64,000 nucleotides of DNA from Escherichia coli. GTDB lineage: Bacteria > Pseudomonadota > Gammaproteobacteria > Enterobacterales > Enterobacteriaceae. The notes beneath the pieces were generated by a model. That model made no database searches. It was not told the origin of the DNA and was given only the letters and a program-made list of their open reading frames with translations. Position numbers and translations under genes: made by a program. The DNA lies in assembly GCF_002854065.1 (NCBI RefSeq), contig NZ_CP024147.1. One strand, given 5' to 3'. This document shows positions 20,505-54,846 of the stretch, in pieces (the stretch's first letter is position 1; every line of letters begins with the position of its first letter).

Positions 20505-20512
20505 TGTGCCGC
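20505..20512. repeat. IS1 target-site duplication, left copy (TGTGCCGC)
   Basis: Identical 8-mer immediately flanks both IS1 ends (20505-20512 and 21281-21288). Confidence 0.85.
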
Positions 20513-20567
20513 GGTGATGCTGCCAACTTACTGATTTAGTGTATGATGGTGTTTTTGAGGTGCTCCA

Positions 20568-20843
20568 GTGGCTTCTGTTTCTATCAGCTGTCCCTCCTGT
20601 TCAGCTACTGACGGGGTGGTGCGTAACGGCAAAAGCACTGCCGGACATCAGCGCTATCTCTGCTCTCACTGCCGTAAAACATGGCAACTGCAGTTCACTT
20701 ACACCGCTTCTCAACCCGGTACGCACCAGAAAATCATTGATATGGCCATGAATGGCGTTGGATGCCGGGCAACCGCCCGCATTATGGGCGTTGGCCTCAA
20801 CACGATTTTCCGCCATTTAAAAAACTCAGGCCGCAGTCGGTAA
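20568..20843 (+). CDS. insA: IS1 InsA (transposition repressor / N-terminal part of InsAB' transposase)
   Basis: 91-aa [46 protein letters not shown]... with zinc-finger-like Cys pairs. Confidence 0.95.
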
Positions 20844-21265
20844 CCTCGCGCATACAGCCGGGCAGTGACGTCATCGTCTGCGCGGAAATGGACGAACAGT
20901 GGGGATACGTCGGGGCTAAATCGCGCCAGCGCTGGCTGTTTTACGCGTATGACAGGCTCCGGAAGACGGTTGTTGCGCACGTATTCGGTGAACGCACTAT
21001 GGCGACGCTGGGGCGTCTTATGAGCCTGCTGTCACCCTTTGACGTGGTGATATGGATGACGGATGGCTGGCCGCTGTATGAATCCCGCCTGAAGGGAAAG
21101 CTGCACGTAATCAGCAAGCGATATACGCAGCGAATTGAGCGGCATAACCTGAATCTGAGGCAGCACCTGGCACGGCTGGGACGGAAGTCGCTGTCGTTCT
21201 CAAAATCGGTGGAGCTGCATGACAAAGTCATCGGGCATTATCTGAACATAAAACACTATCAATAA
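20762..21265 (+). CDS. insB: IS1 InsB (catalytic part of InsAB' transposase, made by -1 frameshift)
   Basis: 167-aa [19 protein letters not shown]...HYLNIKHYQ in the -1 frame relative to insA. Confidence 0.95.
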
Positions 21266-21280
21266 GTTGGAGTCATTACC

Positions 21281-21288
21281 TGTGCCGC
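21281..21288. repeat. IS1 target-site duplication, right copy (TGTGCCGC)
   Basis: Matches 20505-20512 exactly. Confidence 0.85.
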
Positions 21289-42543: not shown

Positions 42544-44139
42544 ATGAAACCTGTAAAACCACCTCGTATTAATGGACGAGTGCCGGTCCTGTCGGCACAG
42601 GAAGCGGTGAATTATATTCCCGACGAAGCAACACTTTGTGTGTTAGGCGCTGGCGGCGGTATTCTGGAAGCCACCACGTTAATTACTGCTCTTGCTGATA
42701 AATATAAACAGACTCAAACGCCACGTAATTTATCGATTATTAGTCCAACAGGGCTTGGCGATCGCGCCGACCGTGGTATTAGTCCGCTGGCGCAAGAAGG
42801 TCTGGTTAAATGGGCATTATGCGGTCACTGGGGACAATCGCCGCGTATTTCTGATCTCGCAGAACAAAATAAAATTATTGCTTATAACTATCCACAAGGT
42901 GTACTTACACAAACCTTACGCGCCGCCGCAGCCCACCAGCCTGGTATTATTAGTGATATTGGCATCGGGACATTTGTCGATCCACGCCAGCAAGGCGGCA
43001 AACTGAATGAAGTCACTAAAGAAGACCTGATTAAACTGGTCGAGTTTGATAACAAAGAATATCTCTATTACAAAGCGATTGCGCCAGATATCGCCTTCAT
43101 TCGCGCTACCACCTGCGACAGCGAAGGCTACGCCACTTTTGAAGATGAGGTGATGTATCTCGACGCATTGGTTATTGCCCAGGCGGTGCACAATAACGGC
43201 GGTATTGTGATGATGCAGGTGCAGAAAATGGTTAAGAAAGCCACGCTGCATCCTAAATCTGTCCGTATTCCGGGTTATCTGGTGGATATTGTGGTGGTCG
43301 ATCCGGATCAAACCCAACTGTATGGCGGTGCACCGGTTAACCGCTTTATTTCTGGTGACTTCACCCTTGATGACAGTACCAAACTTAGCCTGCCCCTAAA
43401 CCAACGTAAATTAGTTGCGCGGCGCGCATTATTCGAAATGCGTAAAGGCGCGGTGGGGAATGTCGGCGTCGGTATTGCTGACGGCATTGGCCTGGTCGCT
43501 CGGGAAGAAGGTTGTGCTGATGACTTTATTCTGACGGTAGAAACAGGTCCGATTGGCGGAATTACTTCACAGGGTATCGCCTTTGGCGCGAACGTGAATA
43601 CCCGCGCCATTCTGGATATGACGTCCCAGTTTGATTTTTATCACGGTGGTGGTCTGGATGTTTGTTATTTGAGTTTTGCTGAAGTCGACCAGCACGGTAA
43701 CGTCGGTGTGCATAAATTCAATGGTAAAATCATGGGCACTGGTGGATTTATTGATATCAGTGCCACTTCGAAGAAAATCGTTTTCTGCGGCACATTAACT
43801 GCGGGCAGTTTAAACACAGAAATTACCGACGGCAAATTAAATATCGTCCAGGAAGGACGGGTGAAGAAATTTATTCGGGAACTACCGGAAATTACTTTCA
43901 GCGGAAAAATCGCTCTCGAGCGAGGGCTGGATGTTCGTTATATCACTGAGCGCGCAGTATTCACGCTGAAAGAAGACGGCCTGCATTTAATCGAAATCGC
44001 CCCTGGCGTCGATTTACAAAAAGATATTCTCGACAAAATGGATTTCACCCCAGTAATTTCGCCAGAACTCAAACTGATGGACGAAAGATTATTTATCGAT
44101 GCGGCGATGGGTTTTGTCCTGCCTGAAGCGGCTCATTAA
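42544..44139 (+). CDS. ydiF: Fused alpha/beta family-I CoA-transferase
   Basis: 531-aa ORF with CoA-transferase glutamate-site region; immediately upstream of ydiO. Confidence 0.85.
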   Translation: MKPVKPPRINGRVPVLSAQEAVNYIPDEATLCVLGAGGGILEATTLITALADKYKQTQTPRNLSIISPTGLGDRADRGISPLAQEGLVKWALCGHWGQSPRISDLAEQNKIIAYNYPQGVLTQTLRAAAAHQPGIISDIGIGTFVDPRQQGGKLNEVTKEDLIKLVEFDNKEYLYYKAIAPDIAFIRATTCDSEGYATFEDEVMYLDALVIAQAVHNNGGIVMMQVQKMVKKATLHPKSVRIPGYLVDIVVVDPDQTQLYGGAPVNRFISGDFTLDDSTKLSLPLNQRKLVARRALFEMRKGAVGNVGVGIADGIGLVAREEGCADDFILTVETGPIGGITSQGIAFGANVNTRAILDMTSQFDFYHGGGLDVCYLSFAEVDQHGNVGVHKFNGKIMGTGGFIDISATSKKIVFCGTLTAGSLNTEITDGKLNIVQEGRVKKFIRELPEITFSGKIALERGLDVRYITERAVFTLKEDGLHLIEIAPGVDLQKDILDKMDFTPVISPELKLMDERLFIDAAMGFVLPEAAH

Positions 44140-49931: not shown

Positions 49932-51253
49932 TCATGCATCCCACAGGCCCGCATCTCGGGCCTGATGTTCTGTTTCGAGAGTCCAAAATGAAAGTGACAT
50001 TAACGTTTAACGAACAACGTCGTGCGGCGTATCGTCAGCAAGGGCTATGGGGCGATGCTTCGCTGGCCGATTACTGGCAGCAGACCGCTCGTGCGATGCC
50101 AGACAAAATTGCCGTGGTCGATAATCATGGAGCATCGTACACCTATAGCGCGCTCGATCACGCCGCGAGCTGTCTGGCAAACTGGATGTTAGCGAAGGGT
50201 ATTGAATCAGGCGATCGCATCGCATTTCAACTGCCAGGCTGGTGTGAATTTACCGTTATCTATCTTGCCTGCCTGAAAATCGGTGCGGTTTCCGTACCGC
50301 TGTTGCCTTCCTGGCGGGAAGCAGAACTGGTATGGGTGCTTAATAAGTGTCAGGCAAAAATGTTCTTTGCACCGACGTTGTTTAAACAAACGCGTCCGGT
50401 AGATTTAATCCTGCCGCTGCAAAATCAGCTTCCACAACTACAACAAATTGTCGGCGTGGACAAACTGGCTCCCGCCACCTCTTCCCTCTCATTAAGTCAG
50501 ATTATCGCCGACAATACCCCACTGACCACGGCGATAACGACCCACGGCGATGAATTAGCCGCGGTGCTGTTTACCTCCGGAACCGAGGGCCTGCCAAAGG
50601 GCGTGATGCTTACGCATAACAATATTCTCGCCAGTGAGCGGGCTTATTGCGCGCGGCTGAATCTGACCTGGCAGGATGTCTTTATGATGCCTGCGCCACT
50701 CGGCCACGCAACGGGCTTTCTGCATGGCGTAACAGCACCATTTTTGATTGGTGCTCGCAGCGTGTTGTTAGATATTTTCACTCCTGATGCGTGTCTCGCG
50801 CTGCTTGAGCAGCAGCGTTGCACCTGTATGCTCGGCGCAACGCCGTTTGTCTATGATCTTTTGAATTTACTAGAGAAACAACCCGCAGACCTTTCAGCGC
50901 TGCGCTTCTTTCTTTGCGGCGGTACCACAATCCCCAAAAAAGTGGCGCGTGAATGCCAGCAGCGCGGCATTAAATTATTAAGTGTTTATGGTTCCACAGA
51001 AAGTTCGCCGCATGCGGTGGTGAATCTCGATGATCCTTTGTCGCGCTTTATGCACACCGATGGTTACGCTGCCGCAGGTGTAGAGATTAAAGTGGTCGAT
51101 GACGCACGCAAGACCTTACCGCCAGGTTGCGAAGGTGAAGAAGCCTCGCGTGGCCCCAATGTGTTTATGGGGTATTTTGATGAACCTGAATTAACCGCCC
51201 GAGCCCTGGATGAAGAAGGCTGGTATTACAGCGGCGATCTCTGCCGTATGGAT

Positions 51254-51262
51254 GAAGCTGGC
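51254..51262. repeat. IS1 target-site duplication, left copy (GAAGCTGGC)
   Basis: Identical 9-mer at 51254-51262 and 52031-52039 flanking the IS1. Confidence 0.9.
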
Positions 51263-51317
51263 GGTGATGCTGCCAACTTACTGATTTAGTGTATGATGGT
51301 GTTTTTGAGGTGCTCCA

Positions 51318-51593
51318 GTGGCTTCTGTTTCTATCAGCTGTCCCTCCTGTTCAGCTACTGACGGGGTGGTGCGTAACGGCAAAAGCACTGCCGGACATCA
51401 GCGCTATCTCTGCTCTCACTGCCGTAAAACATGGCAACTGCAGTTCACTTACACCGCTTCTCAACCCGGTACGCACCAGAAAATCATTGATATGGCCATG
51501 AATGGCGTTGGATGCCGGGCAACCGCCCGCATTATGGGCGTTGGCCTCAACACGATTTTCCGCCATTTAAAAAACTCAGGCCGCAGTCGGTAA
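51318..51593 (+). CDS. insA: IS1 InsA
   Basis: 91-aa ORF identical to the copy A InsA. Confidence 0.95.
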
Positions 51594-52015
51594 CCTCGCG
51601 CATACAGCCGGGCAGTGACGTCATCGTCTGCGCGGAAATGGACGAACAGTGGGGATACGTCGGGGCTAAATCGCGCCAGCGCTGGCTGTTTTACGCGTAT
51701 GACAGGCTCCGGAAGACGGTTGTTGCGCACGTATTCGGTGAACGCACTATGGCGACGCTGGGGCGTCTTATGAGCCTGCTGTCACCCTTTGACGTGGTGA
51801 TATGGATGACGGATGGCTGGCCGCTGTATGAATCCCGCCTGAAGGGAAAGCTGCACGTAATCAGCAAGCGATATACGCAGCGAATTGAGCGGCATAACCT
51901 GAATCTGAGGCAGCACCTGGCACGGCTGGGACGGAAGTCGCTGTCGTTCTCAAAATCGGTGGAGCTGCATGACAAAGTCATCGGGCATTATCTGAACATA
52001 AAACACTATCAATAA
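51512..52015 (+). CDS. insB: IS1 InsB
   Basis: 167-aa ORF identical to the copy A InsB. Confidence 0.95.
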
Positions 52016-52030
52016 GTTGGAGTCATTACC

Positions 52031-52039
52031 GAAGCTGGC
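52031..52039. repeat. IS1 target-site duplication, right copy (GAAGCTGGC)
   Basis: Matches 51254-51262 exactly. Confidence 0.9.
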
Positions 52040-52436
52040 TATATAAAAATAACCGGGCGCAAGAAAGATATTATTGTCCGCGGCGGCGAAAATATTAGCA
52101 GCCGTGAAGTGGAAGATATTTTATTACAGCATCCTAAAATTCACGATGCTTGTGTGGTTGCAATGCCCGATGAACGCTTAGGTGAACGTTCATGCGCTTA
52201 TGTCGTGCTGAAAGCACCGCATCATTCATTATCGCTGGAAGATGTAGTGGCTTTTTTTAGCCGTAAACGGGTCGCAAAATATAAATACCCTGAACATATC
52301 GTGGTAATCGAAAAACTACCGCGCACTGCCTCAGGTAAAATACAAAAGTTTTTGTTAAGAAAAGATATTATGCGGCGATTAACGCAGGATGTCTGTGAAG
52401 AGATTGAATAAGTTTCATCTTCGGGGGTCACATAAC

Positions 52437-52477
52437 CCCGGCGACAAAACGCCGCCGGGTATTTATTTTATTTCTTC
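52437..52477 (+). terminator. Putative intrinsic terminator after fadK, overlapping the ppsA stop
   Basis: Stem CCCGGCG / CGCCGGG followed by TATTTATTTTATTTCTT. Confidence 0.5.
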
Positions 52478-54846
52478 AGTTCAGCCAGGCTTAACCAGGT
52501 TTGCACCACGGTGTCCGGATTCAGAGACAGGCTATCGATCCCCTCTTCCATCAACCATGCGGCAAAATCTTCGTGGTCGGACGGACCCTGACCGCAAATC
52601 CCGACATATTTGCCCTGTTTCTTCGCGGCACGAATCGCCATCGACAGCAGTGCTTTCACCGCATCGTTGCGCTCATCGAACAATTCAGACACCACGCCGG
52701 AGTCACGATCCAGACCGAGCGCCAGCTGCGTCATATCGTTTGAGCCAATTGAGAAGCCGTCGAAATATTCGAGGAACTGCTCGGCCAGCAAGGCGTTGGA
52801 CGGGATTTCACACATCATGATGATTTTCAGCCCGTTCTCACCACGCTTCAGCCCCTGACGCGCCAGTTCCTCAACCACCGCTTTCGCCTGATCTACGGTA
52901 CGCACGAACGGGATCATGATCTCAACGTTGGTCAGCCCCATGTCGTTGCGCACACGTTTCACTGCTTCGCACTCCAGCGCGAAACAGTCGCGGAAGCTGT
53001 CGGAAACATAGCGGCCCGCGCCACGGAAGCCGAGCATCGGGTTCTCTTCATCTGGCTCGTAACGCTCACCACCGACCAGGTTGGCATATTCGTTCGATTT
53101 AAAATCAGAGAGCCGGACAATGACGCGCTTCGGATAAAACGCGGCACCCAGCGTCGCGATCCCTTCAGTCAGACGACCAACGTAAAATTCACGCGGAGAA
53201 TCAAAACCTTTCATCATCTCGCGGATTTCGTTTTGCAACTGCGGTTCCTGATCGTCAAACTCAAGCAGTGCGCGTGGGTGGACGCCAATCATACGGTTGA
53301 TGATAAATTCCAGACGCGCAAGTCCCACGCCTTCGTTCGGCAGACAGGCGAAGTCGAAAGCTCGGTCCGGGTTACCGACGTTCATCATCACTTTCAACGG
53401 CAGATCCGGCATCGTTTCTACGCTGGAGCTTTTCACGCTAAATTCCAGCAACTCCGCATAGACGTAACCGGTATCACCTTCGGCACAAGAAACAGTGACG
53501 TTCTCACCGTCTTTCATCCGTTCTGTTGCATCACCACAGCCCACTACCGCCGGAATGCCCAGTTCACGAGCGATGATCGCCGCGTGACAGGTACGACCGC
53601 CACGGTTGGTGACGATGGCAGATGCTTTCTTCATGATCGGTTCCCAGTCCGGGTCGGTCATGTCAGTGACCAGCACGTCACCAGGTTCGATGCGGTTCAT
53701 TTCGCTGATGTCATGGATGACTTTCACCGGACCCGCACCGATGCGATGACCGATAGCACGGCCTTCGGCGATAATCTTACCCTGTGAATGCAGCGTATAA
53801 CGCTCCATGACCTGACCGCGTGAGCGCACGGTTTCCGGACGCGCCTGCACAATGAACAGTTTGCCGGTGTGGCCATCTTTCGCCCACTCAATATCCATCG
53901 GGCGACCGTAGTGTTTCTCAATTTGTACGGCCTGTTTTGCCAGTTCCTGCACTTCTTCGTTGGTCAGCGAGAAGATGTCACGCTGTTCCTGCGGTACGTC
54001 TTCGATTTTAACCTGCTTGCCGTGCTCCTGGGTCGGCGCGTAAACCATGCGGATTTTTTTCGACCCCATGGTGCGGCGCACGATAGCCGGGCGATTCGCC
54101 GCCAGTGTCGGTTTATGCACGTAAAACTCATCCGGGTTAACCGCACCCTGCACGACCATCTCACCAAGGCCCCATGCGGAAGTGATAAACACCACCTGGT
54201 CAAAGCCGGATTCGGTATCAATGGAGAACATCACGCCAGATGATGCGAGGTCAGAGCGCACCATCCGTTGAACACCAGCGGAGAGCGCCACACCACGGTG
54301 ATCGTAACCCTGGTGCACACGATAAGAGATGGCGCGATCGTTAAACAGAGAAGCAAATACATGTTTCACTGCCACGAGAACGGCGTCAAAACCCTGAACG
54401 TTGAGGAAGGTTTCCTGCTGACCGGCAAAAGAAGCGTCCGGCATATCTTCTGCGGTGGCGGAGGAGCGCACCGCAAAAGAGGCGTTTTCGTCATCGGCGG
54501 AAAGCTGTGCATAGGCTTCGCGGATGGCGTTTTCCAGCTCAGGCTGGAAGGGAGTGTCGATAATCCACTGGCGGATTTGCGTGCCCGCTTTCGCAAGCTG
54601 AGTAACATCGTCAATATCCGTTTTATCCAGCAGTTCATAAATGCGCTGGTTTACGCCGCTTTGGTCCAGAAACTGGTTAAACGCGTCGGCGGTTGTGGCG
54701 AAACCATTCGGAACGGAAACACCCATTCCGGAAAGGTTAGTAATCATTTCACCCAGGGAGGCATTTTTGCCCCCAACCCTGTCTACATCATTCATGCCGA
54801 GTTGGTTATACCAAAGCACCAGCGGTGACGAGCCATTGTTGGACAT
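52468..54846 (-). CDS. ppsA: Phosphoenolpyruvate synthase
   Basis: 792-aa [37 protein letters not shown]... with PEP-utilising phosphohistidine domain. Confidence 0.96.

Follow-up and report, generated by a model that had tools for sequence, protein, structure and literature searches.

IS1 is described as leaving target duplications of 8 or 9 bp and as preferring AT-rich regions, with no clear motif at its insertion sites (PMC5009759). C6-C8 fatty acids are the best substrates of the K-12 FadK enzyme. Loss of fadK alone still allows growth on every fatty acid, since FadD suffices, and only the fadD fadK double mutant fails to grow; even the anaerobic role of the enzyme is doubtful (PMC9329746). 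In the paper library searched, no paper joins fadK and IS1, with or without Shigella. Here we describe an IS1 insertion in fadK within a 64,000-nucleotide stretch of Escherichia coli DNA (hereafter the window), and compare it with the same locus in other E. coli genomes.

The inserted element occupies positions 51263 to 52030 on the plus strand and is 768 bp long, with its left inverted repeat facing the 5' end of fadK. The first-pass annotation had described it as identical to another IS1 located earlier in the window and as flanked by a 9-bp target duplication. Both points held: the two copies agree at 768 of 768 positions, and GAAGCTGGC stands as a perfect 9-bp repeat at 51254-51262, where it encodes E-A-G of fadK codons 423-425, and at 52031-52039. 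The fadK coding sequence runs ...ATG GAT GAA GCT GGC up to the left end of IS1; the right end, ...AAGTTGGAGTCATTACC, stops at 52030, and GAA GCT GGC TAT ATA AAA follows directly as fadK resumes. In the 64-kb window GAAGCTGGC occurs four times versus 0.66 expected, and two of these four copies adjoin the ends of IS1 exactly, where the chance of a 9-bp match at a fixed position is ~4e-6.

The terminal inverted repeats of the element, annotated on the plus strand as GGTGATGCTGCCAACTTACTGAT at 51263-51285 on the left and as the reverse complement GGTAATGACTCCAACTTATTGAT at 52008-52030 on the right, are imperfect, with 18 of 23 positions matching, and the left one is overlapped by a promoter-like site at 51270-51297. 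Between them, on the same strand, lie insA (51318-51593; 91 aa), which encodes the zinc-ribbon and helix-turn-helix inhibitor, or N-terminal transposase part, and the insB' reading frame (51512-52015) for the catalytic part of the transposase. The two are joined by AAAAAAC (A6C) at 51569-51575, a -1 programmed frameshift motif, and both transposase frames are intact. Against NF033558 (IS1 family transposase) the InsB' part scored 143.8 bits (cutoff 100), and the InsA part 90 bits, covering model positions 1-81; in a draft assembly (L008), the same insA ORF carries the Pfam domains Zn_ribbon_InsA and HTH_Tnp_IS1. The element thus combines the 768-bp length, ~23-bp inverted repeats, insA/insB' A6C frameshift, NF033558 match and 9-bp duplication of the IS1 family. 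RefSeq annotates the copy in strain CUWW06, which has the identical sequence, as 'IS1-like element IS1B family transposase, programmed frameshift', and 'programmed frameshift' is likewise annotated on equivalent IS1 copies.

Removing IS1 and one copy of the duplication in silico restored a single uninterrupted ORF, of 566 aa from an in-frame upstream ATG at 49934 or of 548 aa from MKVTL, the RefSeq start. The restored protein matched the NF004758 equivalog (medium-chain fatty-acid--CoA ligase, FadK) at 1091 bits, well above the cutoff of 736, over positions 1-547 of 548. Pfam places AMP-binding (PF00501) at 31-397 and AMP-binding_C (PF13193) at 448-525, and the break falls in the segment between these domains, after residue 443 in the 566-aa numbering, which is residue 425 in the 548-aa numbering. 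In a structure search, homology spanning both domains linked restored FadK to many members of its adenylate-forming superfamily with solved structures, with no structure of FadK itself among the matches. These results bear out the first-pass annotation, which had named fadK as the target, put the break after codon 425 (right in the 548-aa numbering, as the in silico excision confirmed) and held that the AMP-binding domain is separated from the C-terminal lid. The downstream fragment is in the correct frame, and RefSeq records of the same insertion list 'fadK ... incomplete' together with an 'AMP-binding enzyme' fragment.

As found in the window, fadK is split, with AMP-binding and AMP-binding_C on separate fragments, and would not give a full-length match to NF004758. 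The 5' fragment (49988-51262, plus strand) holds codons 1-425 in the 548-aa numbering. Its ORF reads eight codons into IS1 (GDAANLLI) as far as a stop codon at 51287-51289, giving a product of 433 aa, 425 from FadK plus 8. The 3' fragment (52031-52411, plus strand) holds codons 423-548 and the stop codon and carries GRKKD, AMP-binding_C and PRTASGK. It lacks its own ATG, the sole listed ORF start being a GTG at 52109. We take GRKKD (432-436) to be the hinge motif and PRTASGK the catalytic-lysine motif, both in the C-terminal fragment, and the gene is presumably cut ~10 residues upstream of the structural hinge. With both motifs on the other fragment, the 433-aa product should be catalytically dead. 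The N-terminal piece is missing the C-terminal domain in full, along with the presumed hinge motif and catalytic lysine of this enzyme class, and the allele would for that reason be null, i.e. a pseudogene.

The 3' fragment is also in frame with insB', with only the transposase stop between them (...IKHYQ*VGVITEAGYIKITGRKKD, window 52013-52039). This shared frame is probably a coincidence, with a 1-in-3 chance of arising; read-through at the TAA stop codon, if it occurs, would yield a transposase-FadK C-terminal fusion. A search for promoter-like sites gave none pointing outward from the right end of IS1, and an outward IS1 promoter driving the 3' fragment was rejected as a candidate, the only promoter-like site on the plus strand lying in the left inverted repeat.

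Upstream of fadK, on the same strand, lie ydiF, ydiO, ydiQ, ydiR, ydiS and ydiT, with ydiP on the opposite strand. Full-length matches to the expected family models were obtained for ydiO, ydiQ, ydiR, ydiS and ydiT; the family match of ydiF fell below the cutoff (388 bits vs 750), and ydiP had no match in the family-model search. On the other side ppsA (52468-54846, minus strand) is convergent with fadK, whose stop codon is at 52409-52411, and the order ydiQRST-fadK with ppsA convergent is also annotated in RefSeq relatives. Direct damage is confined to fadK, and no downstream gene is affected, because ppsA is convergent and fadK is the last gene of its cluster. The first-pass annotation was therefore right to regard fadK as the last gene of ydiQRST-fadK and the only one directly hit.

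Taken together, these findings are best explained by a simple IS1 transposition into fadK codons 423-425 that created a null allele, inherited in one E. coli lineage, at a site next to AT-rich DNA; we put the probability of this reading at roughly 93%. A single transposition event would have duplicated the 9-bp target and split the gene, leaving a C-terminal piece with neither a promoter nor a start codon of its own. IS1 would have chosen the site through its preference for positions beside AT-rich DNA, the same 9 bp being reused in other lineages, and the insertion would then have been inherited within one E. coli lineage. The structure of the insertion, the in-frame restoration, the independent assemblies, the recurrence and the derived deletions of the relatives are direct observations; loss of FadK enzyme activity from this allele would follow from the missing C-terminal domain, and a mild phenotype and AT-richness as the cause of the hot spot are likewise inferred.

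The derived deletions are seen in the closest relatives. Two RefSeq complete genomes, CUWW06 (wastewater, Thailand) and 100416 (stool, Gambia), are ~100% identical to the window over the 12 kb downstream of the insertion, and in both the IS1 is identical at 768 of 768 positions and the right junction is the same as in the window. Their left IS1 ends are joined to sequence at window positions 44088 and 44125, respectively, in the last ydiF codons, and there is no target duplication. The two genomes have lost different segments, of 7174 and 7137 bp, each comprising the end of ydiF, then ydiO, ydiP, ydiQRST and the first 425 fadK codons. One junction kept, the other fused and no duplication are the marks of an IS1-associated adjacent deletion, and they are found in the two relatives, not in the window. 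The endpoints in ydiF lie 37 bp apart (loci L025 and L026), the first cut falling at the start of TTATTTATCGATG. By this comparison the window represents the ancestral, pre-deletion state of the lineage, with an insertion older than the deletions of the relatives. The deletions may have come about through intramolecular transposition of IS1 or through recombination with a second copy that was present transiently; both routes are discussed in PMC5009759, where deletions are explained by local hopping.

IS1-bounded deletions were also found in other strains. In QDFD216 an analogous event gives the order aroD / IS1 / fadK from nt 1000, and MIN9 and 50EVAW have match statistics identical to those of QDFD216, the one genome of the three that was inspected. 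In ET76 the order is ydiF' / IS1 / last 363 nt of fadK, and EC6 and ES1 share the match statistics of ET76, again the only one inspected.

We queried the junctions against 5426 RefSeq complete E. coli genomes, a set that does not include the source genome. IS1 was present at the exact same 9 bp in seven strains, in the same orientation in LST200A, VTB97420v, 20377 and 22919 and in the opposite orientation in RM14721, PRO_A-1462 and EC20-4B-2. The duplication in those seven strains is GAGGCTGGC, as against GAAGCTGGC in the window, and their IS1 copies differ from that of the window at 8 to 47 positions. Over the 2.3-kb flanks these strains are separated by 16-69 SNPs from the window and from each other, except for 20377 and 22919, which form an identical pair. 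On a conservative count, these differences point to at least six independent E. coli hits on the same 9 bp, in both orientations and by different IS1 variants. Five draft assemblies (L008, L011, L013, L014 and L016), 1.2-2% diverged, encode the same truncated product, and one protein with a different haplotype (P0008) ends in ...DEAGGDAANLL.

IS1 has also used another exact site, TGTGAAGA(G), in the final codons of fadK (nt 1630-1638, ~window 52394-52402); insertions there, in both orientations, come from three unrelated E. coli genomes (loci L002, L031 and L032). Two of these three genomes are still annotated with a complete fadK. Single IS1 hits in the 3' third of fadK were found at nt 1175, 1280, 1308 and 1486.

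Recurrence might also come from natural selection favoring the loss of fadK or the ydi cluster, rather than from IS1 target preference, but we consider this unlikely. Many lineages have independently lost fadK function or the ydiF-fadK block through IS1, as selection would have it: the tile containing the site is wholly absent in 25 of the 5426 complete genomes, and 23 more keep the 3' tile without the 5' tiles. Selection would, however, scatter insertions over the whole gene, whereas the 400-bp tile centred on the site is broken in 32 genomes and the upstream tiles in 6 (nt 1-400) and 0 (nt 501-900). Nor would selection direct the six or more independent events to the very same 9 bp in both orientations, or favor a second exact site, TGTGAAGA(G), in the last codons, where little function is lost; and the site is intact in ~99% of the complete genomes. 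The two explanations, selection and target preference, are not mutually exclusive.

Target preference, the reading we favor, fits the local composition. The insertion site adjoins TATATAAAAATAACC, in which 13 of 15 positions are A+T and which is among the AT-richest 15-mers of the gene, and the deletion endpoint in QDFD216 adjoins the other AT-richest tract of fadK. AT-richness as the cause of the hot spot would agree with the described IS1 preference, the relation being one of correlation. An IHF site was considered as a cause and dropped: no match to the IHF consensus WATCAANNNNTTR with at most one mismatch was found within 100 bp of the site. In strains with many IS1 copies, IS1 often lies close to other genes: as a control, the ydhY junction query returned 16 genomes with IS1 nearby; regional IS1 recurrence alone is therefore unremarkable, and only the exact-site reuse and the contrast between tiles count. 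We consider it quite likely that GARGCTGGC (fadK codons 423-425, directly 5' of TATATAAAAATAA) is a nucleotide-precise IS1 hot spot, seeding recurrent IS1-bounded loss of ydiF-ydiO-ydiP-ydiQRST-fadK. If true, IS1 could choose its targets with much greater site specificity than the textbook 'AT-rich region, no motif' allows, and a local DNA feature would make this metabolic cluster structurally fragile.

The IS1 load at first hinted at a Shigella origin for the window, a reading we dropped because the exact truncated product is deposited under E. coli (AUJ98220.1) and CUWW06 and 100416, the nearest complete genomes, are E. coli. Partial FadK proteins from Shigella (among P0004 and P0017-P0021) were seen as well. 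Those from Shigella dysenteriae end at residue 432 (...YIKITGR) and stop at contig edges, and those mostly from Shigella sonnei begin at about residues 444-453, also at contig edges. This suggests that repeats, probably insertion sequences, cause contig breaks within the same ~80-bp stretch of fadK in Shigella, at positions other than the site in the window.

That the split gene still works, either because the N-terminal fragment reassembles with a separately translated C-terminal one or because a new role has been acquired, is very improbable. Such residual function would draw on the fact that both fragments are otherwise undamaged with the frame preserved, on a 100-aa GTG-initiated ORF (52109-52411) that covers AMP-binding_C, and on the 3' fragment being in frame with insB', where a trace of read-through insB'-fadK 3' fusion behind the single TAA is possible. 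The GTG ORF, however, begins past GRKKD and so lacks the hinge, and the right IS1 end offers no outward promoter-like site. Moreover, the entire N-terminal part, along with ydiO-ydiT, is gone from close relatives, and other lineages have comparable deletions, which argues that nothing is being maintained; equivalent alleles are recorded as pseudogenes in RefSeq. The null allele remains the reading we adopt.

Independent assemblies bear on whether the insertion is real. The exact 433-aa truncated product was found in 68 blocks of the assembly collection and is also GenBank AUJ98220.1, encoded on a 4,639,454-bp E. coli contig; a look-up of the 451-aa long-form truncated ORF gave no match, whereas the 433-aa form did match. 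One locus (L017; GCA_900449015.1, 4.74-Mb contig) is 99.94% identical to the window over the whole fadK'-IS1-'fadK arrangement, and four others (L009, L010, L012 and L015) differ from the window by 1-2 bases on contigs that end inside IS1, as is expected of short-read contigs at a repeat. IS1 is a multi-copy element, with at least 40 matches in the closest complete genomes, and the identity of the two copies in the window makes them error-prone for assemblers; yet the idea that a repeated IS1 was misplaced in a fadK that is really intact is scarcely credible in view of the perfect 9-bp duplication around the element, the truncated product in dozens of independent assemblies, the contigs L008 and L017, which cross the complete IS1 and have fadK sequence to its left and right, and the right junction that is identical in two complete genomes. 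At positions 3360-5740 of L017, ppsA is called as three separate ORFs, the DNA being 99.94% identical to the window with two gaps; these most likely reflect indel errors of that assembly and not biology.

The sister IS1 (20513-21280, plus strand) is flanked by an 8-bp duplication, TGTGCCGC, at 20505-20512 and 21281-21288, and the first 39 bases of IS1 have exactly two matches in the window, at 20513 and 51263, both on the plus strand. This copy splits a 208-aa minus-strand ferredoxin-like ORF that is annotated as ydhY in RefSeq relatives. ydhY is presumably the first gene of the E. coli K-12 ydhYVWXUT cluster, and the insertion in it, unlike the one in fadK, might have polar effects on five genes downstream. 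The exact ydhY junction occurs in no complete RefSeq genome, the two relatives that share the fadK copy included. The two identical copies lie in direct orientation and enclose ~30 kb of ordinary chromosome (20513-52030), in which we take the large ORFs to fit the E. coli K-12 order from pykF through the suf operon to fadK'. Homologous recombination between the copies could readily delete or duplicate this 30-kb segment. No exchange between the copies has yet taken place, because each keeps its own duplication. Identical copies lying 30 kb apart in direct orientation might suggest a composite transposon or the product of an IS1-IS1 rearrangement in place of separate insertions, a notion that we dismiss in that the copies are flanked by separate duplications, TGTGCCGC around copy 1 and GAAGCTGGC around copy 2, that excising each restores a normal gene (ydhY and fadK), and that the closest relatives share the fadK copy while the exact ydhY junction is in no complete genome of the collection.

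For the strain, a simple insertion of this kind means one fewer acyl-CoA synthetase and a further example of gene decay in an IS1-rich E. coli lineage. By analogy, the phenotype of fadK::IS1 would be mild, and is probably nil or subtle and silent while fadD, a gene outside the window, is intact; we expect this because fadK single mutants grow via FadD (PMC9329746). Such a phenotype matches the ease with which the locus has been lost in several lineages. The window captures an intact intermediate, in which the insertion came first and the ~7-kb IS1-bounded deletion followed in the relatives. Exact-site reuse and this insertion-then-deletion series are of mild interest to insertion-sequence researchers, and the reused site is a convenient natural test case for IS1 target choice. 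Because the exact site is reused across the species, fadK::IS1 is an unreliable marker of shared ancestry in strain typing.

Set against known systems, this is an ordinary pseudogene created by IS1 insertion, and RefSeq already annotates equivalent alleles. The copy in the window is like the known IS1A, IS1B and IS1R isoforms of E. coli, Shigella and plasmids in size, ends, reading frames, frameshift and duplication, with no structural difference. Against the IS1A-type copies that other strains carry at this fadK site or close to it, it shows 7-10 differences; against isoforms further removed, IS1X2-type copies among them, it shows 34-48. The RefSeq fadK::IS1 alleles of the seven strains share with it the gene, the 9-bp target and the break, and four of the seven share its IS1 orientation; they are annotated as 'fadK incomplete', IS1 and an 'AMP-binding enzyme' fragment. 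Their flanking haplotypes lie 38-60 SNPs per 2300 bp from that of the window, and the events are independent. With respect to IS1-associated adjacent deletions, whether classical IS1-promoted ones or the outcome of recombination between a resident copy and one newly inserted nearby, CUWW06 and 100416 display the expected signature, and the window, which itself has no deletion, is the intact precursor. Finally, reuse of one site in both orientations resembles the hot spots of IS186 (GGGG(N6/7)CCCC) and IS5 (YTAR), as for IS186 in menC and fimA (PMC5009759). Unlike those elements, IS1 is described without a motif beyond AT-richness (PMC5009759), and the few sites here are too few to derive one.
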